The notes: a model not told the origin generated them from the sequence alone. A stretch of DNA of 64,000 nt from Fidelibacterota bacterium UBA6931 (GCA_002448795.1 DKAH01000017.1:54270-118269); one strand, 5' to 3'; counted from the first letter of the stretch, positions 7,338-62,713 are shown. Numbers and translations: made by a program.

Positions 7338-7850
7338 TCAATCGGAATGGGAGAGAGGGGACCTCTCATGTTTGAGGAGCCACTTTTTCATCGGCAATCC
7401 ACCGCCGAAGCCACCAAGGGTGCCGTCGTGAGCGATAACACGGTGGCACGGTATAACAATTGGAACGGGGTTTCTACCGTTGGCACTTCCCACTGCCCGG
7501 ACCGCCTTGGCATTGTTCATCCGCTCCGCAATCTCTTTGTAAGAAGCTGTCTTTCCGAAAGGAATCTCCGCTACCTTCTTGAGCGCTTTTTCTTGAAACT
7601 GTGTCGTTCTAAGATCAATGGGAAAAGTGAAATTCTCACGAACACCGTCAAAGTATTCCCGAAGCTCGTTCAGTTCATCTTGAAGGGCGTTGCTGTTTTC
7701 GACCATCTCTTCTTTGGGGAAGATATCCAAAATCCACTGGAAAAAAGTGCTATCGTTTTCAGACTGCAGACTGATCTTACATACGCCCAGGGATGTCTTG
7801 GCAATGAGAAGTTTTCCGATGGGGGTATCTAGAGAGGCGTAAGTGATCAC
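7338..7850 (-). CDS. ogt: Methylated-DNA--protein-cysteine methyltransferase
   Basis: IPCHRVI active-site motif; about 170 aa. Confidence 0.85.
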
Positions 7851-9994: not shown

Positions 9995-10449
9995 ATTTCC
10001 TTTGCTGCTCTATGGATCGCCTTCCGAATCCGCTGGTAGGTGCCACAGCGGCAAAGGTTCATCTTCATGGCGGTGTTAATATCCTCGTCCGAGGGGTCGG
10101 AATTTTTTTCCAACAGTGCCGCTGCTGTCATAATCTGACCAGACTGACAGTAGCCGCACTGGGGGACCTCTTCGGCAATCCACGCTTGCTGAAGAGGGTG
10201 AGAAAGATCAGTGGAGAGACCTTCGATGGTAGTAATCTCCGAGCCGTCGACGTATTCCACTGACGTCATGCATGCCCGTGTCGGTTCGCCATCAAGGTGA
10301 ATTGTACAGGTACCGCAAAGCCCACGGCCGCATCCAAACTTGGTTCCGGTGAGTCCCAACTCATCCCTGAGCACCCAGAGCAATGGCATATCTTCAGCAA
10401 CATTGACGTTCTGCTTCTTGCCATTGATTGTTATTGAGTACCGCGCCAT
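9991..10449 (-). CDS. (2Fe-2S)-binding small subunit (IorA-like)
   Basis: [10 protein letters not shown] and CGYCQSG...CRCGTY cluster motifs. Confidence 0.9.
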
Positions 10450-18948: not shown

Positions 18949-19150
18949 TCTTTCTCCTTGTTGAAATACTTTGTCTAAAGGACCTTCGACTGAGCGTCAG
19001 GTCCTGGTTTCTGATTTGTTCTCCCAACTTTATAGCTTGAATTGTCATACCCACAAGTCCATTCATTTGTCAGGCAGATTGGAGGTTGGGTTGGATTGTT
19101 TTCAATCAAATGATGAATCCAATTCTTCTCGTAATTTATATGGTGATGGT

Positions 19151-20908
19151 ATGGTGAAAAAAGATTCATTCCTTTCTGCGGTTTTACTCCTGCTATGGTG
19201 CCAGAGTCTTTTCGCTCAGGTCAAATATACTCAAACTGTAGTCTCCTATAACGTCTTGAACTATCGCGGTACCAGCGTCGCCGACAATGATAGAGAGGAT
19301 GACTTCAGACTGGTGATCTCTGAGACTGATCCCGATCTTATCGTGGCGCAGGAATTGGAAAACACCACAGGCTACACCCACTTTCTCAACGATGTGCTCA
19401 ACCACGATGAGGCGGGCCGCTACGAAGGGGCCTCCTTTTCTGATCAGTCCAATACCGATATCGATATCGCTCTCTATTTCAGGAGTGGAGTTTATAGGGT
19501 AATCTCCACCGGCACGGTGAACACAACCTCAAGCTGGGGACACAGGGACGCAGTGGAGTTTGTGGTACGGCACCTTCCATCCGATCAAGAGCTGCGGCTT
19601 TACGGCGTCCACCTGAAAGCGGGATCTAGTGCCAGCAATGCCGCCGACCGGCAGTCGGAGGCGTCCAAACTGAGAGCCTATCTTAACGATCTCGAAGCCG
19701 ACAGCCACTTTCTCGTCCTGGGCGATTTCAATGTGTATGATGGAGACGAGGCTGGCTTTCAGAGGCTGGTGGAATCGCAAGATGACAACGACGGCCGGCT
19801 GTTTGATCCTATTAATCAGATCGGTGCTTGGCACAACAACTCTTCGTTTGCTTCCATTCATACGCAGGCGACTCGTGCCACTTTCGGTGGAATGGACGAT
19901 CGTTTCGACTTCATTCTTGCCTCCGAAGCGGTTCTGAATGCATCGTCAGTGAACTTTGTTGAGGATTCATACACCGCCTTTGGAAATGATGGGACGCGGT
20001 GTTGTAATGAGGCGATTAACAGCGGCACCAACGGGGTTGTTTCGGCTAATGTGGCCGATGCCCTCCACGACGCATCAGACCATCTCCCGGTGGTGATGAA
20101 AATTGAATTCATCGGGGCCGAAGCGAGTGACCACACCATCGTCATCAACGAAATTATGAAGGACCCCTCGGCGGTAAGCGACGCCAGCGGAGAATGGTTC
20201 GAGCTCTATAACGCCGGGGAGACCGCTGTCGACCTGTGCGGCTGGACACTGAAGGACAACGACAATGATGAATTTATCATCACGTGTGATGACAGTTTTG
20301 TAATTGCAGCAGGCGAATACGTGGTACTGGCGCCCAACGGTGATTCTGCGTCCAACGGTGGTCTCTCTGTCAATTATACCTACATCTACGGCAGTTTCAA
20401 ACTGGCAAACGCCAACGATGAAATTATTCTAATTGATGCCAGCGGCGGAGAGGCGGACAGGGTGGAATACGATACCTCTTTTCCTGATCCTACCGGCGCG
20501 TCCATGGCCCTCACCGATCCATCTGCAGATAACAGTGATGGTGCCAACTGGAATGTTTCCACGCTGGTTTATGGCGCCGGCGACAAAGGAACACCGGGTC
20601 AGAATAACAGCGGTATCACTGTCACTACCTCAAAACCGCTGCCTAAGGAATTCGAGCTACACCAGAATTATCCCAACCCGTTTAATGCCATCACCACAGT
20701 CCCGTTCACCATGGCCGAACGCGGTGAGGTCCACGTCTCCATTTTTAACCTTCATGGAAAGGAGATGGCGGTGCTGATGAGTGGATCCGCGAGGGCCGGA
20801 GAACAAAGGGTCAAGTGGGACGCCTCTCAGTTTTCTAGCGGTCTCTATATCTGTCGGCTCGAAGTGACGGGTAAGAGTATTACGCGGAAGCTCCTCTTGC
20901 TGAAATAG
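19151..20908 (+). CDS. Secreted endonuclease/exonuclease/phosphatase (EEP) family hydrolase with a lamin-tail domain and a Por/T9SS-type C-terminal domain
   Basis: An ATG at 19151 gives the signal peptide MVKKDSFLSAVLLLLWCQSLFAQ. EEP blocks are VVSYNVLN, AQELEN, LGDFN, DRFDFIL and SDHLPV. The LTD is VINEIM.DP....GEWFELYN and the tail is YPNPFNAITTVPF...SGLYICRL...LLLLK. Confidence 0.8.
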   Translation: MVKKDSFLSAVLLLLWCQSLFAQVKYTQTVVSYNVLNYRGTSVADNDREDDFRLVISETDPDLIVAQELENTTGYTHFLNDVLNHDEAGRYEGASFSDQSNTDIDIALYFRSGVYRVISTGTVNTTSSWGHRDAVEFVVRHLPSDQELRLYGVHLKAGSSASNAADRQSEASKLRAYLNDLEADSHFLVLGDFNVYDGDEAGFQRLVESQDDNDGRLFDPINQIGAWHNNSSFASIHTQATRATFGGMDDRFDFILASEAVLNASSVNFVEDSYTAFGNDGTRCCNEAINSGTNGVVSANVADALHDASDHLPVVMKIEFIGAEASDHTIVINEIMKDPSAVSDASGEWFELYNAGETAVDLCGWTLKDNDNDEFIITCDDSFVIAAGEYVVLAPNGDSASNGGLSVNYTYIYGSFKLANANDEIILIDASGGEADRVEYDTSFPDPTGASMALTDPSADNSDGANWNVSTLVYGAGDKGTPGQNNSGITVTTSKPLPKEFELHQNYPNPFNAITTVPFTMAERGEVHVSIFNLHGKEMAVLMSGSARAGEQRVKWDASQFSSGLYICRLEVTGKSITRKLLLLK

Positions 20909-22261
20909 CTACTCGTCCGGAATAATGTTCTCATCCACAGTGTTGGAGAGACGGTACCGGACAATCCGCGAATTCACCGTATCACAGATGTAAATAATTC
21001 CCCGCTCATCTACTGCCAGTCCCCTTGGAGCGTCAAGAATGCCCGGTCGTTCCACCGTGAGGAAGGTATCCACCAGGGCAGAATCACCATCGGAGTAAAC
21101 CCAGATAGTGGTATCAACGAGGGCCTCCTTAACCCCTGCCTTCATGAAAAAACTTCCATTAGAGTTGAAAATCTGAATCTCATCGGCGAGAGTGTTGGCA
21201 ACGTAAACCTGCTGTTTCTGATCCACCGCTATATCCGCCGGTTTTAAGAACCGCCACAGATCCATGATGTCATGAGATCCCTGTTGGAAGACAGAAGGGT
21301 AGGTGGTGTATCCACCCGCGGAGACAGGGCGGATTTTGTGTACTGAAAAGAATTCCCCCGCCTGGACGTAATAGATGTTGCCGGCAAAATCGACATCAAG
21401 AGCGGAAGGCCTATTCACCGTGCCTGCTCCCGTGCCGTAGCCCGTCACCGTGTGGCCGAAAACACCTCTGTGGGTCCACACCTCCTCGCCAGTGGTTAGA
21501 CGAATAAGTTGCGACCGTTCAAAGTTGATCCGGACGATGCGGTTGAGTGCGTTGTCCGTGACGTATATGTAGTCGCCGTCCGCCGCGGAAATTCCTGAAT
21601 AGAGGGATTGGCTACTGCTGTAATAGACATCCTTTAAGGACGTCGCATTCACGCCGGCGTCAAAGAAGAGATGTGGGCTGGAAAGAGAATCGATAAGGGG
21701 CTGTTGCGACGACCAGACAGCGTCACCCATCTGCCATTCACCCCCATGAAGCTTTACATACCAGTCGGAAGTCCCGGCAGATACGGACACCTCCTTTCCT
21801 GATGCGATATTTACGAACGTGGCACCGGTCATCACTTCCGCAATTTTATTCTGCCGCCAGAGCTGGTTCCACCGTATGACACGGCTGGAGCCGTCGATCA
21901 TGAAGATATTCATTTTCTGGTCTATGTCCATATCGATGGGAGCAAAGGAATCGCCGGAGTGGTCTTTTATGTTCACGAGGTCATCAAAACCGCTCAGGAC
22001 AGTCCCATCCTGCTTCAAGACAAAAACCGATCGTGCCGCCGAGTCGGCTACAAAGAGGCGTCCATCCGGTGCGATGGAGATCTCAACAGGAGAGGAAAAA
22101 CCCAGGCTGGCATCCCATATGGGATTCATAATCAGATAGGTTGTGTCTCCGGCAGCAAATTCAACGTTCTCATTGATGGTGGCCGGAAGAGGCATTTTCT
22201 CCACACAGCCGCTGACAATTATCAGAAAACAGCCCGCTATAGTCAAAAGCCAGTTTCTCAT
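20909..22261 (-). CDS. NHL-repeat beta-propeller lipoprotein
   Basis: Lipobox VSGC. There are about six NHL-like blades (e.g. IYVTDNALNRIVRI, VYVANTLADEIQIF, IYICDTVNSRIVRY). The ATGA overlaps the upstream gene. Confidence 0.6.
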   Translation of the reverse strand: MRNWLLTIAGCFLIIVSGCVEKMPLPATINENVEFAAGDTTYLIMNPIWDASLGFSSPVEISIAPDGRLFVADSAARSVFVLKQDGTVLSGFDDLVNIKDHSGDSFAPIDMDIDQKMNIFMIDGSSRVIRWNQLWRQNKIAEVMTGATFVNIASGKEVSVSAGTSDWYVKLHGGEWQMGDAVWSSQQPLIDSLSSPHLFFDAGVNATSLKDVYYSSSQSLYSGISAADGDYIYVTDNALNRIVRINFERSQLIRLTTGEEVWTHRGVFGHTVTGYGTGAGTVNRPSALDVDFAGNIYYVQAGEFFSVHKIRPVSAGGYTTYPSVFQQGSHDIMDLWRFLKPADIAVDQKQQVYVANTLADEIQIFNSNGSFFMKAGVKEALVDTTIWVYSDGDSALVDTFLTVERPGILDAPRGLAVDERGIIYICDTVNSRIVRYRLSNTVDENIIPDE

Positions 22262-23271
22262 CAGAACTCCACCGCCAGGCTGAGGCGAGTTGGATCAGAA
22301 AGGTGGATCATGTTAGTGTAAGCAAAATCTACCCGCAGCTTGGCAGGGCCCACAGGAATGTAGAATCCGGCACCGATAGAAAAATCTTCCTCTTCCACAT
22401 TGATCTTATACCCGCCGCGAAGGGCCAGTGTGTTGAGGAATATATATTCCCCTCCCGCCACAATATTCTCTGCGTTATCCACTGGATGGTTGAGCTGAAG
22501 GGATACGGTTAACGAGTGATTTTGAGATTTCACAATCTCCATAGCGCTCCCCACCCGGAAAATGGTTGGCGGTGAGAACAGCTCAAATTCCGAATCGATG
22601 ATTACTTCATCGCCAGTCTCGCGATCAAGGATGAACCGCTCGTAACTTCCTTCGGGCCTTGCCTGTGGACCGAAATTGGAGAGGACTGCCGAGAACCGCA
22701 GTGTCCGAAAGCCTGTCCAGTAGAAGGTTCCCACATCAAGGAGCATGGAACGCATTCGATGGTCGGCAAGGTTCTCCTCTACATGCTTGAGCGTAAGGCC
22801 AAAGCTGAAACGGTCCGACATTCTTACGCTGTAGCTTAGGCCGACAAACCGATCCTGAAAAATGAAATAGTTTCCCGTGCCGTGGGGCATGTATTCGGTG
22901 GTCTCCTGCATGGGCGCCATGTGGAGAATCCCAGCTGATATACCCAGGTAATGGCTTCCGGCCAATTGACGCGACATACCCAGAAAATCGTAGGTGATGT
23001 CAGCAGGCCATTGAATACGGGAGCTGGACACCTGTGTTCCGGAAAGCTGGCCGATAGCAGCGGGATTGTAGACCAGGGAAGATGCATCCTGATTCAGTGC
23101 TACAACTGCTTCGGCCATTCCCGCCGCTCTGGCGCTGGCACCAATCTTCAAAAAGGTAAAGACTGACGTTCCCACCCGCTGACCGCCTAGGATGGGAAAG
23201 AAATTCTGCTGTCCGGAGAGAGCCAGAGGGAACAGTGTGAGGATGAGGATTTTCCGATAATGTTGATTCAT
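22261..23271 (-). CDS. PorV/PorQ-family (FadL-like) outer-membrane beta-barrel
   Basis: GTSVFTFLKIGASARAAGMAEAVVALNQDASSLVYNPAAIG matches the family N-terminal signature as I recall it. The protein ends ...SLAVEF. Confidence 0.6.
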   Translation of the reverse strand: MNQHYRKILILTLFPLALSGQQNFFPILGGQRVGTSVFTFLKIGASARAAGMAEAVVALNQDASSLVYNPAAIGQLSGTQVSSSRIQWPADITYDFLGMSRQLAGSHYLGISAGILHMAPMQETTEYMPHGTGNYFIFQDRFVGLSYSVRMSDRFSFGLTLKHVEENLADHRMRSMLLDVGTFYWTGFRTLRFSAVLSNFGPQARPEGSYERFILDRETGDEVIIDSEFELFSPPTIFRVGSAMEIVKSQNHSLTVSLQLNHPVDNAENIVAGGEYIFLNTLALRGGYKINVEEEDFSIGAGFYIPVGPAKLRVDFAYTNMIHLSDPTRLSLAVEF

Positions 23272-26051
23272 CAGAACATCACCTGAAGTCCGACGCTGGC
23301 CGTTCGGGGCGTTCGAAAACGTGATGGATCAATATTCGGGTTGGGTGTCTCGATCATACTGTATGGGATGATGACGCCTGGATTATAACCTCTGCCGGTG
23401 AAAGGATTTATTCGGCGGGGAATGCGCTGATCCAGAAGGTTCTCCACTTCCGCCAACCACCGGAGATTGACACCACCGACAGTCATCTTCTTGTATAGTT
23501 TTAGGTCCACGTTTGAGACCGGGTCCTTAGCAAGATAAAAGTAGGGCTTGTCATCTTCAACGGTACCGATGTAGTAGGCGACGCCGTCCACCTCGATGAG
23601 GCCATCGGGATATTCACGGGTGCCGGGAATAGACCGCGTGTAGCGTCGCCCGCTTTCGAACTCAAACCGCCATGACATTCCCCAGCCGGAGGGATGATCG
23701 TATGAGATATTGGCGAAAGTCTGAAGTGGCTTGTCCCATTGGAGGAAAACCTCATCCAGAGGCTTCTCCCGAAGCTGGCCCGACTGAACAAGGAGGTTAT
23801 CATCAGGATTGGAGCTTTTCCCGGTGGCAATGGAATAGTTGAAGTTTACATCGGCGTACCAGTTGGCCAGCAGCCGGCTCCTCAGAATCATTTCGATTCC
23901 TCGGGCTCTGGCATAATCAGCATTGAGGTACATGAGGAATCGGAGGTGGGCATATTTCGGATTTGAAGGTGTGATGCTCTGGGAAGTCTCGTAGTCGAAC
24001 ATGTCTTTCCAATAAGCTTTCAGTTCAAGCACCTGGTCTTCGCTAAAACGGTGTTTCAGCCCGATTTCATACTGAACTGTTGTTTTCGGGCTCAAGTTTG
24101 GATTCCCAAAAACCTGGTAGGTGGAAGGGGCTATAGTGTTCAGTTTTGCGTAGACGTACTGAAATGAAGGAAGCTGAGAAAAGTGACCGTAATAGAAATA
24201 GAGTACGTCATTGTCTGTTACAGGATGGGAGATGCCGACTCGCGGAGAAAGCCTTGCTTTTCCACGATAGCCCATGAATTCAAATGTCTCTTCCATGAAC
24301 AGTTCCCGAGCCTCGTCCGTGATAGTAACAGCATCTGGATTGGCGATAGCCTCTTCCACATATTTTCCGGGAAACCAGTAGTCGTAGCGGAGCCCGAGGT
24401 TTGCTGTCATCCCTTCAAAAACGATCCTGTCCTGAACGTAGAAGGCACCGAATAGTGTTCTTGCGCGGTAGGCATCGTAGTTAATGCCGAAGCCTGTTGT
24501 ACCGGTCCACGGCTCATCGATATCCACCACTTGAATTTCTGTGGATGTGGCCTCCACCCCTGCTTTAATCTTGTGTCGATTCAGGGTCTGGTAAGTCCAG
24601 TCGAAATCAAGGCGTGTGTTGTCACTGGAAAGATCATACCACTCCGGCGAAAAGCCCGTGTCGTAAAACTCGTCTCCGTAAGTGATGCGCACATTCCCGT
24701 CCCTGTCGCGGATGATGTAGTTGACAGGCTCGATGTCAAGACGCTCTCTGTAGTCGGTCCAGTGGAGGTCCTGAACCGCACTATGTTCCAATGTGAGGAA
24801 TTGCCCGATGGTCAATTCATAAAAGTTTCGGGGACTGAGGGTGTGAGTCCAGTTAATCTTCACGAGACGAGATTCCCGGGTGATGGTGTTATAATTGTCA
24901 AGAATCTGACTGTAGGCGTAAGGGAAATAGGTGGTGGAAAAAGCCCTAGGCATGAAGAAGCCCTGATTGATATTCAGTGAAATGTCGTAGGAAGCCGACA
25001 GCTTCTTCAACTCGTCTGGTTGCCACGACAGTTTGTAGAGAGCGTGCCAGTCATTGTTCTCCCGGGGAGCCAGGTTACCAAGCAGGGTGTCCGCTCTTTT
25101 TGCGGACAGTCCCGCCGGCAGACGCCAGTTCCGGTGGGGATAGAGCTGCATGGCTGTTGGGAGGTGTGAATCAGTGATCTTGCCGTAGGCGTTGGCGAAG
25201 AAGGAGAACTTGCCCGGAATGTCGAGACCCAACCGTGGTGCCATCAATTCGAGGAGTGGCGAAGGGCCTCCGAGGTTCACCTCGAGTCTGTCGCTATTGA
25301 AGTGATCAAAAGCTCCGGGAGCCGCTCCCCAATGATCACTCAGGTATTTCAGACTCCCTTCAAATTTGTCCCGCCCTTCCTTGAGCCGAATGTTGATGAC
25401 CCCGGACATAGCCTGGCCGTACTCGGCATTGTAGCCACCGGTGATAATTTCCAAGTCTTGGATGCTCTCTGGGTTGATAAACAGGTTTCCTGAGTAGCCT
25501 GAGAGAGGATCCTTAATTGAGAGTCCATCGATGACGTACAGGCTCTCATCAATCCGGCCGCCGCGAATGTGGATTTCGTTGTTAACCTTCGTAACCCCTA
25601 CCTGATCGGCGAGAATGTCCTCCACACTGTTGACAATTCTGTCCTCAATGTCATCGCTGGTAAGTTTGGTGATAGAGGCAGTTTCATCAACATCAAAGAG
25701 CGGTTTCTTACCGAGGACCACCAACTCTTCACCCAATGCGAGGACCGTTTGTTCCAGCTCGAAATCTACAGTGGTGGTTCGCTCCGCTTCCACCGTTACG
25801 CCTGTTCTGAGGATCACTTTGTAGCCGATCATGGAGACTTCCATATCGTAGCTACCTGCTGAAACATCTGTTATACGATAAAGGCCGTTACCATCGGAAG
25901 CGGCGCCGTAATAGGTCCCCTTTACCATCACGTTGACACCGGGAAGAGGCTCTCCAGTTTCACTGTCCGACAGCAGGCCGGTGATTGTCCCTTTCTCCTG
26001 CGCTGAGAGGGGAAGTACTAGCAGAAGTATCGTCAATAGCATACGCTTCAA
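23271..26051 (-). CDS. TonB-dependent receptor-like outer-membrane barrel with a CarboxypepD_reg domain
   Basis: GLLSDSETGEPLPGVNVMVKG...GLYRI, a plug (IHIRGGRIDESLYVIDGLSIKDPLSG), a long barrel and terminal ...VGLQVMF. The TTG start overlaps the upstream stop (TTGA); an alternative ATG is at 26042. Confidence 0.8.
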   Translation of the reverse strand: MKRMLLTILLLVLPLSAQEKGTITGLLSDSETGEPLPGVNVMVKGTYYGAASDGNGLYRITDVSAGSYDMEVSMIGYKVILRTGVTVEAERTTTVDFELEQTVLALGEELVVLGKKPLFDVDETASITKLTSDDIEDRIVNSVEDILADQVGVTKVNNEIHIRGGRIDESLYVIDGLSIKDPLSGYSGNLFINPESIQDLEIITGGYNAEYGQAMSGVINIRLKEGRDKFEGSLKYLSDHWGAAPGAFDHFNSDRLEVNLGGPSPLLELMAPRLGLDIPGKFSFFANAYGKITDSHLPTAMQLYPHRNWRLPAGLSAKRADTLLGNLAPRENNDWHALYKLSWQPDELKKLSASYDISLNINQGFFMPRAFSTTYFPYAYSQILDNYNTITRESRLVKINWTHTLSPRNFYELTIGQFLTLEHSAVQDLHWTDYRERLDIEPVNYIIRDRDGNVRITYGDEFYDTGFSPEWYDLSSDNTRLDFDWTYQTLNRHKIKAGVEATSTEIQVVDIDEPWTGTTGFGINYDAYRARTLFGAFYVQDRIVFEGMTANLGLRYDYWFPGKYVEEAIANPDAVTITDEARELFMEETFEFMGYRGKARLSPRVGISHPVTDNDVLYFYYGHFSQLPSFQYVYAKLNTIAPSTYQVFGNPNLSPKTTVQYEIGLKHRFSEDQVLELKAYWKDMFDYETSQSITPSNPKYAHLRFLMYLNADYARARGIEMILRSRLLANWYADVNFNYSIATGKSSNPDDNLLVQSGQLREKPLDEVFLQWDKPLQTFANISYDHPSGWGMSWRFEFESGRRYTRSIPGTREYPDGLIEVDGVAYYIGTVEDDKPYFYLAKDPVSNVDLKLYKKMTVGGVNLRWLAEVENLLDQRIPRRINPFTGRGYNPGVIIPYSMIETPNPNIDPSRFRTPRTASVGLQVMF

Positions 26052-27604
26052 GGTTGGAATTCCTCCCGCCAGAGATAACTGATAAATCTTGATGCCGAAC
26101 CGGTTCCTTCCATGAGCGGTTCGGAGCCGTTGTGGAGTGGAAGCGTCATGAATACAGCCTTCCCGGAGAGAGTGGTAGAATTGACTCTAAACTGATTTAT
26201 GGCACAAACGTTGGGCATTCCGAGCCAGCTGTATGTATCTCCCGGTTCCTGAAGTTTGTAAAGACTCTTTACATAAGGGGCATTTGTTGAATCTATTTCG
26301 AAAGCGCGGACGCGAATAGCGATCAGTTTGGAAAGTGAGAGGTCAAATGATGAATCCCACTGAGCGTGAAGCTCAGTCCCTTTCAACAATCTCCCGGAAG
26401 GATTGAGGGTATAGGCGGAATCGATGGGAAACCAGGCTAAGGTGGTGTCTTTGAGCTCCGCGGTGTTTAGAAAAAGATTACCACCGTTGGCAAGAAAATT
26501 GGCAATGTTTGCCCCGGCCTCACTGTAGGTCTCCGGTCCGGTGTAAGCGGTGTACCAGAGAATCTTGTCAAAATAGTTCAGGTTTGCATTAATGTCAGCA
26601 TTGGAGTAGGGGAGTTTGTCACCAATCTCCCAGACCGAATAGTCACCATCCTCCGCCAGTGTGTCGAGGATACTTTTGTACCACTCCTGAGCGCGATTGT
26701 AGCGATCTTGAGGGAAGTCATCCACAAGTAGCGTTTTGCCCAAAACGGGCATCACTTCCCAATGGTTTGCTGTGCTAAGGTCATCCGGATCGGGAAACTG
26801 AATGGTGTTGCTCTCTGCGCCGGCGATGTCTCTCGCCTTTGCGTAGAAGATGTGGGGTCCCGGTTCGAGACCGGTTACCGTTACACTGGAGTTCAGCGCC
26901 GCATCGAGTTGGTGCCAGCAGGTGGTGCAGGTATCATCCACTGCATAAAAGATATCGGGAACGGTCTCGATACCGTCCTCGTCCTCAATGTCCCAGACAA
27001 ACGTCCGAGTTGGGAAAGTGAAATTGGTGTCGCCGGGATCGTTCACTAACGGATTGCTCCTGTACCTGAAACCGATCTTCGGCGCTGAATTCCTGACGGG
27101 GATGACCACTTTTGCCGTGGTAGAATCTATGAGACTGTCATTATCTACTGCCGCTACCTGAAAAGTGAAAACGTCCATGTCCGTTTTCAGAGGGAGGAAA
27201 AAGAGGCCTGATTCCTTGGTTGTAAAGGTCCATCCATCGTCCACGTTCCACCTGTAGCGATACCCCACCACGTGACCATCGGAATCTTCACCCCACCAGT
27301 TGAGACGCTGCTTGCTTGTAGTGATGGTGGTGAAAGCGTTACTGAGGGTGTCCCAGAGATAATCCGGATTCGGTTCTTCATCAACCGTATAGATCCACGA
27401 TGTATCGAGATAGCTCTCGCCGGTAACGGGGTCAGTCTTTTGCTGAACGGACTCGATTCGGGAGTAGAGTGTTTCCGCCGCCGCAAGCGTTAGGTATGTT
27501 TCCGGTGCACGGTTTGATATGGGTGCTGATGGATCAGCGTACTCCCAGAGATCGCAACTCAGCATCAGAGCAGCGACTACAAGAATCGGCGAGGGGTTTT
27601 TCAA
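26048..27604 (-). CDS. Hypothetical lipoprotein (Ig-like region plus a C-terminal flavodoxin/GATase1-like region is only a guess)
   Basis: Lipobox MLSC; long ORF in an operon; TTG start; no recognisable catalytic motif. Confidence 0.55.
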   Translation of the reverse strand: MKNPSPILVVAALMLSCDLWEYADPSAPISNRAPETYLTLAAAETLYSRIESVQQKTDPVTGESYLDTSWIYTVDEEPNPDYLWDTLSNAFTTITTSKQRLNWWGEDSDGHVVGYRYRWNVDDGWTFTTKESGLFFLPLKTDMDVFTFQVAAVDNDSLIDSTTAKVVIPVRNSAPKIGFRYRSNPLVNDPGDTNFTFPTRTFVWDIEDEDGIETVPDIFYAVDDTCTTCWHQLDAALNSSVTVTGLEPGPHIFYAKARDIAGAESNTIQFPDPDDLSTANHWEVMPVLGKTLLVDDFPQDRYNRAQEWYKSILDTLAEDGDYSVWEIGDKLPYSNADINANLNYFDKILWYTAYTGPETYSEAGANIANFLANGGNLFLNTAELKDTTLAWFPIDSAYTLNPSGRLLKGTELHAQWDSSFDLSLSKLIAIRVRAFEIDSTNAPYVKSLYKLQEPGDTYSWLGMPNVCAINQFRVNSTTLSGKAVFMTLPLHNGSEPLMEGTGSASRFISYLWREEFQP

Positions 27605-27623
27605 GTTACATAGCAGATGTGGA

Positions 27624-27640
27624 GCCCCGAAGATCGGGGC
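27624..27640 (-). other. Intercistronic GC hairpin between the cargo genes and the lipoprotein/TonB block
   Basis: GCCCCGA-AGA-TCGGGGC (7-bp stem) lies in the 51-nt gap. No T-tract follows on the transcribed strand. Confidence 0.35.
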
Positions 27641-27655
27641 CCCGCACAGCTTACT

Positions 27656-30325
27656 TTATCTAACCAGCGTCATCTTTTTGTGATCAATGAATTCGCCAGC
27701 TTTAACACGGTACATATAAACGCCTGAACTAACAAGTTGACCGTGATCATCCGTACCATCCCAGTTCATTACATGGAAACCGGCATTGAGTGTCTCTTTT
27801 GAAAGAGTCCGAACCTTGAAGCCGCGGATGTCATAGATCACAACATCCACCTGCTGCCGTTCCGCAATCTCGAACCGGATCCGTGTGGACGGGTTGAACG
27901 GGTTAGGAAAGTTCTGGTATAGCCTGTAGGTGTACGGTGTGATGTCCTGTTCAACGCCAGCCGTTACCACTCCAAGATCAGCTTCGTCTCTCACCTGGAT
28001 CTTGTAGGTTCCGAAACTAAAGTTGAACACTCCGGCCACATAGTCCACCTGCTGGAACTGCTCCAGTGCCTCTAACTCGGCATCCCCGGCTGGGGTTGCC
28101 ATATCGTCATCCATCAGACATAGACCTTCTGTCTCATCCCATATTGACCAGTCATACTGGTTGATGGAGACAACCATGGGATCTTCCACGGTGACGACAA
28201 CACCTTCGTAGGACTCAACTTCATCAGCGTCCTGCGAAAGATCGGCACTTTTCACAAGGAGGGATGTGATGGTGTGTCCCGAAGAGATTTTCGTCACTTT
28301 AGTCGCTTCGATCATGGTGTTGTTGTCATACTTGAAGTGCCAGGAAGGGTTGTACTCTTCAACTGTCCCAGTCACACTAATGCTGTCGCCTCTTGTGAGG
28401 ACTTCAGTATCATCGTAGTTGAATACGATTCCGTTCCACGGCGCGCTCGTCGCCTGCATGGCGTAACCTCCATACCCAGCGTTATTCTGAGAAGTATCCG
28501 CGGTCACGATACCGTTAACTGTTACTTCACAACCGTCAAAAGGAGAATCGCCGCCGGACCATTTTGTATACTGAAGGTCGTAAATGGTCAGGTTACCCGT
28601 CTTGGTAATATAGCTGTACTGTTGTACTTCTGTATCACTGGGAAGCGTGGCTGACATGGCCGAGTTCTGGCCATCGCCATCATCCGTGGCCTTCACATAG
28701 TAATGAACCCTGGCCCCATCTGTGCTTGTGGCAGGGATGGTTCCTGCATATGTGGTTCCGGATGTGTTTGTCATGGTCACAGATTGATACGAGCCAGCAT
28801 CAACTGCGTAGTAGATCTCTGCTGATGCGATGGTCGAGTTATCGCTGATTGTGACCGTCAGAGTGACGGACGAATCCGGTTTCGGCACGCAGGGTGAACG
28901 GCTGTAGTCCTTGATCACGGGAGGACCACCGCTGATAACAATATCGTCAGGATAGAGCGGCTCGAGCTTATAAGACGTGGAATCACCGTAGCTGCCATAG
29001 TGGTGGTAAACCCACCCTTGGATAGAATCCACTAGTGTGCCTACGGGTGGCCTTCCGTTCTCTTCCTGCCAGTCAGCGATTTCACCCGAATCGTCATCAA
29101 TTTTCACGGAACCAGAGCCGTCATCCACAGCCCATTCACCGTAAGCAAGGTCGTTGGCAGTCACCGTTGCATTCTTCACACGGACCATCACTGTACCCCA
29201 CTGTTCGGCCTCGGTGGGCCATCTGAGGTCGCCAGTGTTCACTACTTCGACAGGCGGTGTGTCCAGTCCCGTATCCAGAATTTCGATGGGCTCTGTAACG
29301 AATAGTTCAGTCATATTTGCCGGACCGGTGGAATATTCAGCGATATATCCCGTTGCCCGGATATGATCCCCTTCGTAGAGTACTGGGAATGCCGTGCTGT
29401 CGGGATCATAGGAAAGAATAGAACTCCACGGTCCGCCATTAACATCCTGATAGATGAACTTCACGCCGGCACCAGCATAGCTGAGTCCTGTGGGCATAGT
29501 GACGATCCCTTCAATGCTTAATGTGTCCCCAGTCATATATGAAATATCTGATTCTTCATCATCACCAGTTTCTATGAGATCACTGTATAGGACCTGCTGT
29601 ACACGCTGAATCCGTGTCATATCAAATTCCACTACGTCATTGGCGAGACGGGGCAGAATCTTGAAATTGTCGTAACTGTAATCGAGAACGCCGACAACTT
29701 CAGCCAGATTATGACCAATGATAGGCGTGTAATAGTAAGCCATTACATCGTCTACTCTGACAATTCCTGAACTGTCGGCCACTGACCACTCACCGTAACC
29801 AAGATCAGCAGAATCGACAGCGACATCAACTATGCGTACCAAGACACCTTCATACTGTTCAGCTGTGGCCGAGCCAGTATTGATTACCGAGGCCAACACA
29901 TCGATGGGTTCCACTTCGTGGCCGCTACTGTGTATAGTCACCGCGGTAACATCAACGATCTGTGTCTTGCCATAGTACTCGTCTACTGTTCCAGTGACAG
30001 AGACGCTATCGCCTCTGGCCAAGGAGTTTGTCGTTGAACCATCTTCTGCCGTAATTGAGAAGGTGTCCCAGCCGTCATGGTTATAGACCATGATTCCACT
30101 CCATGCGGAATCGGCATCCTGAACAAAAAACGTCCGCTTGTTATAACTCCCCCAGAACTCGGCTGTCACAATCCCTGAGATTGTAACAGTTTCTCCATCC
30201 TTAGGAGAATCACCGGAAGCGTCACTGGTTTTCTGAATATCCGCAATAGACGTTTGCGCTACAACCGCGAAGGGTAAAGTCAGTGCTAACGTATACAGGG
30301 ATATTGACTTTAGCATTTTGCTCAT
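27656..30325 (-). CDS. Large secreted surface protein: three copies of a ~210-235 aa double OB-fold-like module (as in the N-terminal part of ExeM/NucH nucleases), an Ig/Fn3-like spacer and a Por/T9SS-type C-terminal domain
   Basis: Signal peptide. The repeated blocks are I.D(I/L)Q...G(E/D)TV.I.GIVT...Q(D)...W.GI..Y...GDS(V/I)SVTGTV.EY...SGH...E.YEGV.V.V...YGEW.V.D.SG.V..DD. The tail is FPNPFNPSTRIRFEI...SGVYMYRV. Confidence 0.75.
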   Translation of the reverse strand: MSKMLKSISLYTLALTLPFAVVAQTSIADIQKTSDASGDSPKDGETVTISGIVTAEFWGSYNKRTFFVQDADSAWSGIMVYNHDGWDTFSITAEDGSTTNSLARGDSVSVTGTVDEYYGKTQIVDVTAVTIHSSGHEVEPIDVLASVINTGSATAEQYEGVLVRIVDVAVDSADLGYGEWSVADSSGIVRVDDVMAYYYTPIIGHNLAEVVGVLDYSYDNFKILPRLANDVVEFDMTRIQRVQQVLYSDLIETGDDEESDISYMTGDTLSIEGIVTMPTGLSYAGAGVKFIYQDVNGGPWSSILSYDPDSTAFPVLYEGDHIRATGYIAEYSTGPANMTELFVTEPIEILDTGLDTPPVEVVNTGDLRWPTEAEQWGTVMVRVKNATVTANDLAYGEWAVDDGSGSVKIDDDSGEIADWQEENGRPPVGTLVDSIQGWVYHHYGSYGDSTSYKLEPLYPDDIVISGGPPVIKDYSRSPCVPKPDSSVTLTVTISDNSTIASAEIYYAVDAGSYQSVTMTNTSGTTYAGTIPATSTDGARVHYYVKATDDGDGQNSAMSATLPSDTEVQQYSYITKTGNLTIYDLQYTKWSGGDSPFDGCEVTVNGIVTADTSQNNAGYGGYAMQATSAPWNGIVFNYDDTEVLTRGDSISVTGTVEEYNPSWHFKYDNNTMIEATKVTKISSGHTITSLLVKSADLSQDADEVESYEGVVVTVEDPMVVSINQYDWSIWDETEGLCLMDDDMATPAGDAELEALEQFQQVDYVAGVFNFSFGTYKIQVRDEADLGVVTAGVEQDITPYTYRLYQNFPNPFNPSTRIRFEIAERQQVDVVIYDIRGFKVRTLSKETLNAGFHVMNWDGTDDHGQLVSSGVYMYRVKAGEFIDHKKMTLVR

Positions 30326-30347
30326 TTTTTGTTGCTCCTTTTTTCTG

Positions 30348-32522
30348 TCATTTGATAATCAGGAATTTCCCTTCCTTGATTTTACCAAAAGAAGAGCTTT
30401 TTTCATCCTGATTTTGTACTGTAAAAAGGTAGAGTCCCGAAGCGAGGGCCTGATCATGTTCGGTGATCAGATCCCAGGCGTGTTCCCCTCCTCCAAAGCT
30501 TGGTGATTTGTGCTGATCAATATTTTCAATATCCGCGCCGGCATAGTTGGGGGAATCGTGTTGAATTACATCCACGAGGTCGCCGGCCAGTGTAAATATT
30601 CTTATTTCCGCCATCCGCGGAAGATTCGTAAACCAGATCATCCGTTCCCTATTGCCGTACCCTTCCCACACGGCCTGACCCCTGTACGGGTTGGGATAAA
30701 CACCTGGCTCGGCTGTCCATTCGTTTGTTGCTGTCTTCGAACCGGGGTAAACATAGATACGGTTGGAATAATATGAACTTTCGAGACTTCCAAGGTTGGC
30801 CTGCGGATCACCCCTGTCGTAGGCAGTGACGGCGTAGTAGTTGAGCCAGCCGTTCTTCACATCGTTGTTTGTAAAACTGTAGTGATAATAACGGCCATTT
30901 ATCTCGACGCTGTCTGGAGCGCCGTACTGATTCTTGATTCTTACCGCATCGAATCCGCTGTTGTAACCGATGTGTCGATAAGCGGAGTCAGCCCGGTCGA
31001 ATTCCGCCAGCAGAGTAAATTCCGCCATTTCATCTCCTGCTGTTTTCCGGGCGCCGTAAATCCGGTACCCTTCAAAATCCTTCTGCCGGCTGACCGGATC
31101 GATAAAGGCCTCAGCGTTATTGGCCCAGAAGACAGTCACCTTCTCATCACCTACATCCACCGTTACATCAGGAACGGGTGGTGGTGCCGGCAGGATATAC
31201 CTGTCAATTTCTCCATCGAAATCAATATCTTCATCTTCGTCGAGTTTGTTATTCCTGTTTTTGTCTTCACCATCGTAAGCCCGCTGCGCCCAATCGCCAT
31301 TAATGTGGAGGTTCGCTCGCCGGGCATGGGAATCTTCGCCGCCGCCGTGCCATCTCGCAGCCACAGTGGCAAAGATGATATTGACTGACTCCCCTGGAGG
31401 GAGCTGCCATTTGGAAGAATCGGCCGTCATTGGTACTGTGCCCAGCGGACCAGCCGACACCATGAAAAGCCAGCTGTTGGCATTGGAAGGATATCCCGCC
31501 TCCGTGTAGCCTTCGCCAGAACCGCGGCGGACAGTAGTACTCAACTGCTTGTACCTTTCGCTGTCGTTCAGCGGCATCCCGAAATCAGGATAATCGGTGT
31601 TTGTGCTCGTGGTCCAGACCCACTGATTGTAATTGGTTCTTAAGTAAGGGCGGCGGACAGTGCTACCCAAAACTTTCAGGCCAATATACGATTCAGCCCA
31701 TCCATCGTCACCATCGAGATCATATTGATAACCGATGTCTCGATTAAAACCGGCACCGTCCACCGATCTATCAAAGCCGTCCAGATTGTCGTACCACGTA
31801 AAGCCACCGCCAGGCTCGTATCTGCTGGTATAATTCATGTTGGCAACAGAAGCATCTGTCCATATTCCGCTGTAGATGTTTTCTATAGTCTCCTCCGATT
31901 CATTTGTAAAAGTATAGTTGAGCAGAACGAAAGCGTCGGCAAATGTGAAATTCCAGGCGTACGCTTCCAGATGGATGGAAATGCCAAGAGGAGTATGGTT
32001 GGGGATGCCGAAATTGTCCAACGTGTTTTCACCGTAATCCTTGAAATCCGTGATAAGGTCTTGATGTGATACCGCGTACGGTGAATAATACTGTGCCATT
32101 GAATCTTGTGAGGTGGAAGAGATGGAAGACTTGATTTCCATACCGGAAGTCGCAACGAGCTCGAACCCTTCCTGTCCCGATTCAAAAACGCCATCCACGA
32201 TAGCGGTAGAAACTCTCCGCTCACCGTTGACAATACCGCCGATCCAGAGCCCCGCGTAGGAGAAATGTTCAACCTGTTCACGCAGATTCTCCGTATGTTG
32301 CTTATACTGACAGGAAGGTAGAATTCTACCGTTGATTCTGTTCCATCCGTTGCCAAGAACCCCAAAGTTGGTGACTGTCATACCCAACTGCCCCACAGAG
32401 GAATATTTGTCAAAAACGTCAGCAGTACCCTGAGACAGAGCCGACTCGGCAAAAATCAGCATGAAAATAATAGTAGAAATCCGAGGTTTTGGCGGAGATA
32501 AAATTTGTATAGACTGCATCAT
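30348..32522 (-). CDS. Secreted hypothetical protein with an acidic Ca-binding-like loop, an Fn3-like domain and a divergent Por/FlgD-Ig-type C-terminal domain
   Basis: Signal peptide; DKNRNNKLDEDEDIDFDGEIDR; VTVFWANNAE..FEGYRIYG. The tail is VYPNPYRG...IRIFTLAGDLV...SGLYLFTV...GKFLIIK. Confidence 0.65.
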   Translation of the reverse strand: MMQSIQILSPPKPRISTIIFMLIFAESALSQGTADVFDKYSSVGQLGMTVTNFGVLGNGWNRINGRILPSCQYKQHTENLREQVEHFSYAGLWIGGIVNGERRVSTAIVDGVFESGQEGFELVATSGMEIKSSISSTSQDSMAQYYSPYAVSHQDLITDFKDYGENTLDNFGIPNHTPLGISIHLEAYAWNFTFADAFVLLNYTFTNESEETIENIYSGIWTDASVANMNYTSRYEPGGGFTWYDNLDGFDRSVDGAGFNRDIGYQYDLDGDDGWAESYIGLKVLGSTVRRPYLRTNYNQWVWTTSTNTDYPDFGMPLNDSERYKQLSTTVRRGSGEGYTEAGYPSNANSWLFMVSAGPLGTVPMTADSSKWQLPPGESVNIIFATVAARWHGGGEDSHARRANLHINGDWAQRAYDGEDKNRNNKLDEDEDIDFDGEIDRYILPAPPPVPDVTVDVGDEKVTVFWANNAEAFIDPVSRQKDFEGYRIYGARKTAGDEMAEFTLLAEFDRADSAYRHIGYNSGFDAVRIKNQYGAPDSVEINGRYYHYSFTNNDVKNGWLNYYAVTAYDRGDPQANLGSLESSYYSNRIYVYPGSKTATNEWTAEPGVYPNPYRGQAVWEGYGNRERMIWFTNLPRMAEIRIFTLAGDLVDVIQHDSPNYAGADIENIDQHKSPSFGGGEHAWDLITEHDQALASGLYLFTVQNQDEKSSSFGKIKEGKFLIIK

Positions 32523-32668: not shown

Positions 32669-33667
32669 ATGGGAATATTCAAACATCTCTTCCTGACGGC
32701 GGTGGTAACCATTGTACTTGGCGCTCCTCAGGAGGTCTCCTACATCCGTTATTTTCAAACGGAGGACGACCTTCTTCGAGGTGTCGAGATGAAACCTGTC
32801 GAGGCAAGGAATGCTCCCCATATTGAAGCGCTCTATAACCACCTTGATCAGTTGGTGAACAAGATCACCTTAGGCAATGATGAAATGATAACTGAGCAGG
32901 AAATGTATGAGTATCGTGAAAACGGTACACTTTGGAAGCGGGTCATTGCCGATGGAGATGGGAACATCAAGCGAATGTTTGTCTATGGAGATGAAGAGAT
33001 GTCCGCTGTTTTCATCAGCCTGGTTTTTCCCCACCGGAACAGCGCCGATTTTGATGAACGGACAACGATCTACGAATACAACAGTGACGGCAGAGTGTGG
33101 CGCTATCAGTTTCTTTCTCTCGATCACACCGCCTTGGGTCAGATCGAATTCGACTTCTTTGAAGAAGGGCTTGTAAAAGAAGAGAGGTGGACCGACCTGC
33201 TGGCTGGGCAGACGGTTCGCCTGTTCACCTACCGGTTCAATCCAATCTCCCGTGACTATACCATGATTGAGCGAGATGTACGGGGTCAGGAAGTAAGTAC
33301 CGTCGGGATCAAACTACCGCAAAATTTTCTCACTTCCGGCACGGCCGGCGGCGTGGAAGAAATCGGGTTTGGAAACCGATTGGAAGAGAGTTCTGAAATT
33401 ATCGAAGATATTCTTTTGAAGAAGGCGGAAGGGTGGAGTCCATCTGATGCAATCGGACATCTTGCAGATCCAAAACTTTTCTCATCTCCCGACCTCATCT
33501 ATATGAAAACAGGAGATATACTTAAGGTAACTCTCATTGCTGTTACGGAGGAATATGTCCGGTTTCTTTTTACTGGCGATCGTGATGTTCTGACCCTTCC
33601 GCTGACTGGCGTCAGTGAGATTGAGCGGCGCGACGGTGAGGTAATTTACCCCGTTATATACCGCTGA
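32669..33667 (+). CDS. Hypothetical secreted/membrane-anchored protein with YD/MORN-like beta-hairpin repeats
   Basis: Hydrophobic N-terminus and repeats such as YEYRENGTLWKRV and YEYNSDGRVWRYQF. No known family was recognised. Confidence 0.5.
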   Translation: MGIFKHLFLTAVVTIVLGAPQEVSYIRYFQTEDDLLRGVEMKPVEARNAPHIEALYNHLDQLVNKITLGNDEMITEQEMYEYRENGTLWKRVIADGDGNIKRMFVYGDEEMSAVFISLVFPHRNSADFDERTTIYEYNSDGRVWRYQFLSLDHTALGQIEFDFFEEGLVKEERWTDLLAGQTVRLFTYRFNPISRDYTMIERDVRGQEVSTVGIKLPQNFLTSGTAGGVEEIGFGNRLEESSEIIEDILLKKAEGWSPSDAIGHLADPKLFSSPDLIYMKTGDILKVTLIAVTEEYVRFLFTGDRDVLTLPLTGVSEIERRDGEVIYPVIYR

Positions 33668-33714: not shown

Positions 33715-34476
33715 ATGCGTCACACCTCGGCGGCAATCCTTACTCTCGCGGTCTCTCTTTCAGCGCAGGACTACCCTCCACCAACAAATCTTGTTACCAT
33801 TCCCACTGCCGGCGGCCTTGTCCGTGGAGCATTTTCTGCCCATATGCATATGCAGCGGGAAGGAGGCCTCACGACAGCTCTCGCTGTGGGAATTTCGGAT
33901 CGATTCATGTTCGGGCTCTCCTATGGTGCCAGCAAACTGATCGGTGATGGTGAACCGACCCCCTATCCGCGGCCCGAAGTGATATTCAAATACCGCATTG
34001 TAGATGAATCGATGGTGTTTCCGGGGATCGCCATCGGCATTGATACACAGGGGTTTGGCAATTATAACGAAGCGGATTTCCTCCAGAGATATGATATTAA
34101 AGGTTTTGGCACCTACATCGCAGCAAGCAAGAACTGGAGAACACCCTTGGGAAATCTTGGCGCACACTTGGGAGTTAACCAGAACTTTACAGAAACAACT
34201 GATGGTGACGAAGATATTAACCTATTCACAGGGTTCGACCTTGAGTTCAATCCTGAATTTTCATTCCTCGCTGAATACAACGCCGCCCTGAATCAGAACA
34301 ATATGACAGCCGAATCGATCGCCCTCAGTCGTGGTGGCTATCTGAACGCCGGACTTCGGTGGTCGCTATTTCAAAATTTCCACATTGAGTTCCATTTCAA
34401 GAATCTGCTCTTTGATGAAGAAAAAGTGAGTTACTTTAATCGGGAGCTGAAAGTCAACTATATAGAATATTTCTAG
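33715..34476 (+). CDS. Hypothetical small outer-membrane beta-barrel protein
   Basis: Signal peptide ...SLSAQ, alternating strand pattern and terminal ...NYIEYF. Confidence 0.5.
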   Translation: MRHTSAAILTLAVSLSAQDYPPPTNLVTIPTAGGLVRGAFSAHMHMQREGGLTTALAVGISDRFMFGLSYGASKLIGDGEPTPYPRPEVIFKYRIVDESMVFPGIAIGIDTQGFGNYNEADFLQRYDIKGFGTYIAASKNWRTPLGNLGAHLGVNQNFTETTDGDEDINLFTGFDLEFNPEFSFLAEYNAALNQNNMTAESIALSRGGYLNAGLRWSLFQNFHIEFHFKNLLFDEEKVSYFNRELKVNYIEYF

Positions 34477-61492: not shown

Positions 61493-62713
61493 CTAGATAA
61501 TTATTCCTGCAATCGTGGCGGTAAGCCATGACGCCAACGCCCCGGCGATCATTGCCTTGAGAGCAATCTTGGCCAGATCTTTTCGTCGTTCCGGCGCGAT
61601 GCCTCCTATCCCGCCGAGTTGAATCCCAATAGATGCGAAATTGGCGAATCCGCAAAGTGCATAACTGGCGATTATGGCTGTTCTGTCCGAAACGGCATTC
61701 TGGGCCCGTATTTCCATCAGATCAGTGAACGCGATCAACTCAGTCAATACCAGTTTTTCTCCCATCAGTTGACCGAGTATAGCTGCCTCGGACCAAGGGG
61801 CGCCCATGGCCCACGCTAACGGTCGGAAGAGCCAGCTAAGCATTTCTTCAACTGTCAACCCAAACAGTCCAAGGATGCCGTTCACCAAAGCGATAAAGGC
61901 GACAAAAGCGACGAGCATAGCCCCTACATTTGCGGCCAGTTTCATTCCGTCAGTGGCGCCTCGGGAAAGGGCTTCCATGGCATTGTCGTCCGGCGTTTCG
62001 ACATTAATCTTATGATTGCCCAGCGTCTTCGACTGTTCCATTTCGGGAAATATGATCTTTGCCATAACAAGGGCGGCCGGAGCACTCATGATAGATGCAG
62101 CCATAAGGTGCCCCGCAATTCCCGGTATGTCGCTGAGCATGGCGACATATATGGCCATGACGCCACCGGCCACCGTGGCGAATCCTCCTGTCATGACTGC
62201 CATCAATTCCGACTTGGTCATTTTGCTAATGAAAGGCCTAACCATAAGAGGTGACTCTGTCTGTCCAACGAATATGTTAGCCGCCACACTGAGTGTCTCT
62301 GACCCACTTGTTCCCATCGTTTTTTGCATTCCCGCAGCCATCCAACTAATCAGTTTCTGCATAATCCCCAGATAGTACATCAGAGCCATGAGCGAGGAGA
62401 AAAAAATAATTGTGGGAAGAATTCGAAAAGCAAAATTCAACAGCGGCGCTTCGACGATTCCATTACCGAACGATTTGAAAAGAAAATCACTCCCGGCATC
62501 GGCGAAGCCCAGAAGTTGTTCTATAACGCCATCGATAGCGGCAAAAAATGGTTGTCCTACGGGCGTTTTGAGAATGAACATCGCAAAAAGTAGTTGGAGT
62601 CCCAGTCCCCACAAAACAATTCTTTTCGAGATTGAAGAACGGTTGTTGGACATGGCGTAGGCTATCCCCAGCAAAGCCACGATTCCAATCAATCCGACAA
62701 ATCTATCCATCAT
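61493..62713 (-). CDS. nupC: NupC/CNT-family concentrative nucleoside transporter
   Basis: Typical CNT TM pattern and conserved blocks ([11 protein letters not shown]). Confidence 0.85.

Follow-up and report, generated by a model that had tools for sequence, protein, structure and literature searches.

The genome of Fidelibacterota bacterium UBA6931 (Marinimicrobia/SAR406) carries a block of six genes (g1–g6, positions 20909–32522; the same names are used for the proteins) on the 64,000-nt stretch of DNA analysed here, hereafter the window. We propose that this block encodes a polymer import machine that is powered by TonB, depends on a type IX secretion system (T9SS), has no SusD and is set up for DNA in this organism. 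Judged from sequence features, the chances for and against this reading are about even. A constant trio of genes, consisting of the TonB-type barrel g4, g1 and the PorV-like barrel g5 (hereafter the cassette), together with accessory genes that look substrate-related, fits nutrient import of the kind seen in polysaccharide utilization loci. Nucleic acid is suggested as the substrate in the window because of the accessory genes found there. The six genes and the adjacent nuclease gene are as follows.

g1: 30348–32522, − strand, 724-aa secreted protein; putative core component of the cassette
g2: 27656–30325, − strand, 889-aa T9SS cargo with three DUF5689/OB modules
g3: 26048–27604, − strand, 518-aa lipoprotein, Marinimicrobia only
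g4: 23271–26051, − strand, 926-aa TonB-dependent transporter; putative core component of the cassette
g5: 22261–23271, − strand, 336-aa PorV/PorQ-family beta-barrel; putative core component of the cassette
g6: 20909–22261, − strand, 450-aa NHL beta-propeller lipoprotein, Marinimicrobia-specific accessory
Nuclease gene: 18971–20908, + strand, 645 aa, EEP (Exo_endo_phos) and LTD domains and a type A T9SS sorting domain; convergent with g6

Gene order and synteny in Marinimicrobia

The open reading frames (ORFs) of all six genes lay on the − strand, exactly at the positions given in a preliminary description of this DNA, whose gaps, overlaps and domain calls were likewise reproduced by ORF calling and profile scans. 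The spacers g1–g2 and g2–g3 were 22 and 51 nt long, and the remaining neighbours overlapped by 4 nt (g3/g4), 1 nt (g4/g5) and 1 nt (g5/g6). The TTGA reported for the g3/g4 junction was found there (cCTTGAag; a TTG start and a TGA stop with four nucleotides in common), whereas the 'ATGA' reported for g4/g5 and g5/g6 was loosely right only: both junctions read TGATGA, with one A common to the TGA stop and the ATG start. Profile scans of the six proteins returned no SusD-family match and no enzyme domain, in agreement with the description, which had seen no SusD-like gene and no recognisable enzyme among them. A scan of the locus for promoter and terminator consensus sequences gave matches at chance level only.

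We scanned one genome per species of the Genome Taxonomy Database (GTDB) and found g5 in at least 134 genomes. Synteny was read in the best 80 loci, all of which were from the Marinimicrobia phylum, where the names of homologs likewise placed the window. The order g1-g2-g3-g4-g5-g6 and the strand were the same in 80/80 species-level genomes, as far as the contigs reach, and an arrangement recurring in this way is far from chance. Two of these loci, titled 'Opitutia bacterium' and 'Winogradskyella sp.' (L078, L079), held a typical Marinimicrobia block at 58–61% identity; their contigs are probably mis-binned. Close packing was widespread, with a 4-nt overlap of g3 and g4 in 57/67 loci, a 1-nt overlap of g4 and g5 in 56/78 and an overlap of 4 or 1 nt between g5 and g6 in 64/76, these distances being approximate since the first in-frame start codon was taken as the ORF start.

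In the common arrangement, the nuclease gene (+) is followed by g1 to g6 (+), a 332-aa gene (+), a 253-aa gene (+), NUDIX and QueG. In the window's clade, exactly g1–g6 are inverted between the nuclease gene and the 332-aa gene. The nuclease gene comes after g6 in the window's clade; in L003, L047, L062 and L064 it was found upstream of g1. Since precisely six genes were inverted together, the block is a unit, and the nuclease gene remains adjacent to it in either orientation. In the window, the nuclease gene and g6 meet stop codon to stop codon at 20908/20909 with zero spacer, so there is no room for a terminator between the two genes.

Just upstream of the nuclease gene and g1, the common arrangement contains a secretion-related cluster (L003:1–9900, L007:14246–19047, L017:7722–14408) that encodes an M28 peptidase, a FlgD-Ig/sorting-type protein of ~550 aa and PorV/PorQ barrels. 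The PorV/PorQ barrel genes were confirmed in L007, L008 and L017, and in L003 the cluster begins at SprA.

The two outer-membrane barrels

The g4 protein combined a CarboxypepD_reg domain with Plug (50.9 bits, cutoff 23.9) and OMP_b-brl_4 (42.3 bits, cutoff 30) domains and ended in a terminal Phe. A TonB-box-like sequence, GEELVVLG, was located at nt 25710–25733. The corresponding motif GEE[VL]VV.G was for the most part conserved at the 90% level in 70 g4 orthologs and was also present in the related barrel of Rhodothermus marinus described below. With its Plug domain, TonB-box-like motif and terminal Phe, the predicted transporter looks intact. The SusC/RagA model TIGR04056 matched the N-terminal region of g4 only (73.9 bits against a cutoff of 368), by which a SusC-like barrel was ruled out, and a sequence search of the PDB with g4 gave no match. 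The window encodes another, classical TonB-dependent receptor 4 kb from the locus (14341–16662, − strand, 773 aa, TonB_dep_Rec_b-barrel), to which g4 aligned over the N-terminal 234 aa only.

The g5 protein matched the PorV/PorQ family model NF033709 with 178.9 bits (cutoff 90), covering positions 1–326 of the 326-position profile. It failed the equivalog models for both PorV (NF033710, 57 against 250 bits) and PorQ (NF033711, 77 against 220 bits). When a g5 profile was searched against the PDB, PorV (6h3i) was the sole significant match (E 2e-12), followed by two designed beta-barrels (E 0.05–0.2). A generic FadL transporter was rejected as an identity for g5, as the FadL Pfam model stayed below its cutoff and the PorV/PorQ model was passed. 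Rejected as well was the view that g5 is the sole PorV of the organism: further PorV/PorQ-family genes sit in the secretion-related cluster of related genomes, and g5 is an extra paralog because of these additional genes.

The preliminary description had proposed SusD-independent capture and import, with T9SS cargo held on a PorV paralog, and had named three outcomes that would speak against it: a gene set not conserved as a unit in relatives, a generic FadL/OmpP1 transporter in place of a PorV-like barrel, and a g4 without plug or TonB box. Instead, the unit was kept throughout the phylum and inverted as a block in the window's clade, g5 belonged to the PorV/PorQ family, and Plug, TonB-box-like motif and C-terminal Phe were all present in g4. 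At the level of sequence, the proposal is thus supported.

The g2 protein and its proposed link to DNA

The g2 protein consists of three modules (aa 21–240, 236–470 and 576–800), an Ig/CBM56-like domain in the middle and a sorting domain of type A. With a TIGR04183 score of 34.8 bits (cutoff 23), it has the hallmark of T9SS type A cargo, and its signal peptide is of the Sec type, without a lipobox cysteine. The modules are genuinely homologous repeats: A and D shared 34% identity (E 5e-28), A and B 32% (E 3e-20). Among 35 scanned orthologs, which ranged in length from 552 to 1633 aa, DUF5689 was matched above its cutoff in 18 (best E 4e-18), an OB fold in 31, LTD in 12 and the sorting domain in 31–35. 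A PSCyt1 cytochrome c-like N-terminal domain was observed in 5/35 orthologs (best E 3e-13; e.g. L001:1622–5641), which is odd for a DNA-binding surface protein.

Modules A and D matched positions 1–117 of the ExeM/NucH nuclease model NF033681 (E 7e-14 and 6e-11). The whole of g2 reached 83 bits (cutoff 300) and had no Exo_endo_phos domain, so it is not a full ExeM/NucH nuclease. The adjacent nuclease, which carried a sorting domain scoring 38 bits (cutoff 23), matched the catalytic part of the same model at positions 282–545. As g2 and the nuclease match different parts of one model, they are connected by a domain-fusion link, being a single protein elsewhere and two neighbouring genes here. 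Consistent with this, tblastn matches of module A in plasmids were mostly annotated as ExeM/NucH nucleases. When the DUF5689 and barrel pair of Bacteroidota was sought in the plasmid collection, only ExeM/NucH nucleases were found, and a PDB sequence search with g2 returned only FlgD-Ig, corresponding to the sorting domain.

On these sequence grounds, we propose g2 as a DNA-binding surface protein. The preliminary description had guessed at nucleic acids as substrate, and this guess has gained strength from the DUF5689 and ExeM/NucH modules, from a nuclease linkage that persists across the inversion and from the precedent of the ddb locus in Bacteroides, discussed below. At 11–30 kb from the locus, the window also encodes a xanthine-dehydrogenase-type molybdopterin oxidoreductase (7847–10449) and a Na+-dependent nucleoside transporter of the NupC/CNT family (61493–62713), a pair that would fit nucleoside or purine use.

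A wider cassette of barrel, g1-like protein and PorV-like barrel

Among 72,556 plasmids, the sole full-length match to g4 and the sole match to g5 fell in one locus of the Rhodothermus marinus plasmid pRMAR01. The gene order there was FG-GAP T9SS cargo, barrel, 1132-aa hypothetical protein, PorV/PorQ protein, amidase and beta-lactamase-like hydrolase. The barrel shared 30% identity with g4 over 94% of its length, and the PorV/PorQ protein shared 30% identity with g5. The 1132-aa protein (gene Rmar_2818) was a global homolog of g1, and a stretch of the C-terminal domain (IRI[FY]TLAG[DE]LVDVI.HD) was nearly identical in the two.

A metagenome scan with the R. marinus pair yielded at least 533 relatives, of which the 80 loci most similar to the R. 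marinus protein were examined. The barrel preceded the g1-like gene in 70/71 informative loci, and the PorV-like gene followed it in 69/69. One contig (L151) had two cassettes in tandem. The identities of the three cassette proteins to their R. marinus copies co-varied (r 0.69–0.85), and the GC content of the loci ranged from 33 to 63%. Named carriers were Rhodothermus, Rhodothermaceae, 'Bacteroidetes bacterium', Ignavibacteria and Marinimicrobia, with all of the proteins annotated as hypothetical.

Neither g3 nor g6 was found in these 80 non-orthologous cassettes, while the g1-like gene was always found, and the NHL protein was rejected as a core member on that account. The preliminary description had looked to a triad of TonB barrel, PorV-like barrel and NHL protein; its third member has to be replaced by the g1-like protein. 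As far as gene neighbourhoods can tell, barrel, g1-like protein and PorV-like barrel are a generic core with variable accessory genes.

For the survey of flanking genes, the closest ORF of ≥120 aa to either side was counted, and some unrelated neighbours are included for this reason. The gene before the barrel encoded FG-GAP repeats in 35/52 loci and a sorting domain in 36/52. After the PorV-like barrel came Amidase_2 (14/54), M23 (6/54), NamZ (2/54) or M15 (2/54) proteins, many with a sorting domain. The neighbours of these metagenomic cassettes were often peptidoglycan hydrolases, not nucleases. By analogy with polysaccharide utilization loci, the accessory genes appear to set the substrate. 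Marinimicrobia locus L099 (also L089–L122) held a second, long-type cassette, with FG-GAP cargo, barrel, 1125-aa g1-like protein, PorV-like barrel and amidase. Exogenous muropeptides are needed by Fidelibacter multiformis, which belongs to this phylum (PMC11652737), and the long-type cassette of Marinimicrobia may be related to this reported dependence.

Proteins g1, g3 and g6 and flanking features

A Sec signal peptide and a beta-sandwich were recognised in g1, together with a D-rich loop of the Ca type, an Fn3-like domain and, at the C-terminus (~aa 606–724, nt 30348–30707), a divergent domain of T9SS type. The protein had no Pfam match. A TIGR04183 match was not obtained for g1 either, and the evidence for a sorting domain is the similarity of its C-terminus to the C-terminal region of PorZ in a profile search (E 1e-6). 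A word-index search retrieved 1541 homologs of g1, the top 120 at ≥63% identity, and the g1-like family comprised 3453 clusters at 50% identity (E up to 0.001). The predicted structure of g1 was poor (pLDDT 60), and a likeness of this model to GH116/GH65-type beta-sandwiches (TM ~0.2) was discarded as not reliable.

The g3 protein is a lipoprotein of no known family, with Cys17 invariant in 43 homologs. Its model (pLDDT 81) showed beta-sandwich domains matching tandem Fn3 repeats and a C-terminal alpha/beta domain; a fold search with the whole model found generic Fn3 tandems only. We regard g3 as a candidate surface partner of the g4 barrel. In g6, an NHL propeller is combined with the lipobox VSGC. 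Three further features were noted within and beside the block.

Hairpin in the g2–g3 spacer: 27612–27651, − strand, GC-rich, dG −26.8 kcal/mol, z −3.9
332-aa gene: 32669–33667, + strand, no family match
253-aa gene: 33715–34476, + strand, signal peptide, C-terminal Phe, barrel-like; no family match

A hairpin of dG ≤ −10 occurred in 44/46 orthologous g2–g3 spacers (L001–L084), often with a T-run behind it. It probably serves as an attenuator within the block or stabilises the RNA; given its conservation, g1–g2 and g3–g6 may be expressed at different levels.

In most Marinimicrobia, the 332-aa protein, which is poorly conserved, and the 253-aa protein, which is well conserved (~60% identity), are encoded directly after g6 and in its direction. 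In the window, the inversion of the block has left both genes divergent from g1. From its sequence, the 253-aa protein looks like a small barrel. Both genes may be associated with the system.

Proposed mechanism and alternative explanations

In the mechanism that we propose, g1, g2 and the nuclease, which have signal peptides and sorting domains (a divergent, putative one in g1), would be exported by the T9SS. The g5 barrel would then hold g1, and possibly g2, at the surface by an uncleaved C-terminal domain, as in the pairs PorQ-PorZ and PorV-PorU. Going by homology, DNA would be bound by the three DUF5689/OB modules of g2 and cut by the secreted EEP nuclease, and the fragments would enter through the TonB-energised g4, helped by the lipoproteins g3 and g6. 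The PorV-like barrel and T9SS delivery would thereby stand in for lipid anchoring and for SusD.

A broader version of this idea is more tentative, and we would lean against it at present. It holds that an undescribed import machine exists across the phyla of the Fibrobacteres–Chlorobi–Bacteroidetes (FCB) group, in which a T9SS-secreted g1-like adaptor or lid would replace SusD; it would keep its C-terminal domain and be anchored through it on a PorV-like barrel docked to a TonB transporter. Swappable cargo would set the substrate, namely DNA in the window and peptidoglycan fragments in the FG-GAP/amidase type. There is precedent for retained C-terminal domains that are bound by cognate PorV-like barrels (PMC10202324).

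Several observations weigh against import of DNA by this block. Module A of the window's g2 covers the full DUF5689 profile at 25.4 bits, just under the cutoff of 28.6. The CBM56-like middle domain, matched in 10/35 g2 orthologs (best E 1e-8), could indicate glucan. The nuclease and the nucleoside-related genes could serve salvage and not the g1–g6 system. It is not certain that the block forms a single transcript, as the conserved hairpin divides it into g1–g2 and g3–g6. Finally, high conservation throughout the phylum and the position of the block ~9 kb from SprA in the common arrangement would also be in keeping with a housekeeping function in secretion.

This last point leads to an explanation that we consider unlikely, in which the block is a cargo-specific T9SS secretion or anchoring module without import and both barrels aid the export, folding or attachment of g1 and g2. 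Export involving a TonB-type barrel has a precedent in Oar of Myxococcus, which is needed for secretion of PopC. Besides this precedent, a secretion module would account for the identity levels, which are of a housekeeping kind (≥63% for g1, ≥61% for the g4 barrel), for the PorZ-like C-terminus of g1 and for the fact that g4 matches the long OMP_b-brl_4 profile and not the classical one of TonB barrels. It would also suit the common arrangement, in which the block comes shortly downstream of a cluster with SprA, an M28 peptidase, a protein with a sorting domain and two PorV/PorQ barrels. However, in the window's clade the block has separated from the SprA cluster, and TonB box and plug are conserved in g4. 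The accessory genes vary with the cassette type as substrates would, with a nuclease and DNA-binding modules in one and peptidoglycan hydrolases in the other, and the tandem cassettes in L151 look like paralogous nutrient systems.

Import of another polymer, such as beta-glucan/laminarin or peptides, with OB and LTD as generic binding domains, seems to us quite improbable. Oligosaccharide binding is established for OB folds, the CBM56-like matches in the middle domain of g2 point in the same direction, and the g1 model, poor as it is, weakly resembled beta-sandwich domains of glycoside hydrolases or phosphorylases. Yet a glycoside hydrolase or peptidase was found in or next to the block in 0/80 genomes, the top-scoring families were nuclease-associated (DUF5689, 4e-18; LTD, 2e-26; ExeM/NucH, 1.6e-23), and the nuclease linkage survives rearrangements. 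Least probable of the three is uptake of DNA for natural transformation and not for nutrition, as with the pair of a CarboxypepD_reg barrel and a DUF5689 protein that is essential for it in Riemerella anatipestifer (PMC8459023): the phylum-wide conservation of the block would suit such a role, but a degradative secreted nuclease is tightly linked, ComEC, ComEA and DprA had no matches among the ~30 window proteins scanned, and catabolic peptidoglycan hydrolases accompany the sister type of cassette.

If the reading as a TonB-powered DNA import system is true, a phylum-wide DNA-capture machine would be a concrete route for the turnover of dissolved DNA, and hence of phosphorus and nitrogen. Few uncultured bacteria in the dark and low-oxygen ocean are more abundant than Marinimicrobia, whose feeding is largely inferred. 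In the cassette, TonB-dependent uptake is genetically united with type IX secretion, and both are hallmark systems of the FCB phyla. The cassette would suggest a way of taking up polymers without SusD and a candidate importer of peptidoglycan or muropeptides in Rhodothermus, Ignavibacteria and Marinimicrobia, and it would give a testable role to the thousands of 'hypothetical' proteins of the g1-like family. Genetic tests of the idea are within reach, as Rhodothermus marinus can be grown and has the cassette on a plasmid.

Comparison with known systems

The nearest described system to the locus in the window is the ddb locus. DNA use by Bacteroides thetaiotaomicron requires the DUF5689 protein DdbD, the TonB transporter DdbC and nucleases, encoded in ddbABCDEF, and DdbD is the proposed DNA-binding partner of DdbC (bioRxiv 10.1101/2025.03.18.642099). 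Similarly, natural transformation of R. anatipestifer requires the homologous genes RA0C_RS04915/RS04920, for a CarboxypepD_reg barrel and a DUF5689 protein (PMC8459023). Like these, the block has a TonB-type CarboxypepD_reg barrel near a DUF5689/OB protein and secreted nucleases, and no SusD. Its DUF5689 gene lies two genes upstream of the g4 barrel gene, and the secreted nuclease, here of the EEP/LTD type, is adjacent in both gene arrangements. The likeness of g4 to DdbC and RA0C_RS04915 is one of CarboxypepD_reg and plug architecture only. In contrast to the ddb locus, where the DUF5689 partner is a signal peptidase II (SPII) lipoprotein, g2 is a three-module T9SS cargo with a sorting domain; the PorV/PorQ paralog, g1, the 518-aa lipoprotein and the NHL lipoprotein are added, and the phylum is another one.

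With the SusC/SusD loci and 'utilisome' complexes, the block shares a TonB barrel that is co-encoded with surface binders and degradative enzymes, and a constant core whose accessories appear to set the substrate. It differs in having no SusD-like lid, in the low score of g4 against the SusC/RagA model (73.9 vs 368 bits) and in binding proteins and enzymes that would be delivered by the T9SS and are not lipoproteins.

In PorQ-PorZ, PorV-PorU and the pairing of PorP/SprF with type B cargo, a PorV-family barrel has, as proposed for g5, a cognate cargo that keeps its C-terminal domain, and the genes are adjacent. Unlike PorQ and PorV, g5 corresponds to neither equivalog and is always encoded with a TonB barrel, and g1 is not PorZ but resembles it in the C-terminus only. 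A structural precedent is found in the BAM complex of Bacteroidota, in which the FadL/PorV-like BamG docks on BamA and holds the surface protein BamH (PMC12578637). This is an analogy only, as the large barrel BamA is not a TonB transporter, the function is another one and there is no T9SS cargo. With the ExeM/NucH endonucleases, g2 has in common modules homologous to their non-catalytic N-terminal domain and, in some orthologs, LTD; the EEP catalytic domain is absent from g2 and sits in the neighbouring gene.

The preliminary description had known of no described system with this composition. It had not known the ddb precedent. In literature on PorV of Marinimicrobia, on PorV together with TonB-dependent paralogs and on PorV-/PorQ-like barrels, we found no description of this cassette. 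We regard the locus as a variant of the TonB-dependent polymer utilization loci, and there is a fair chance that its core represents a complex of the outer membrane of a new kind.

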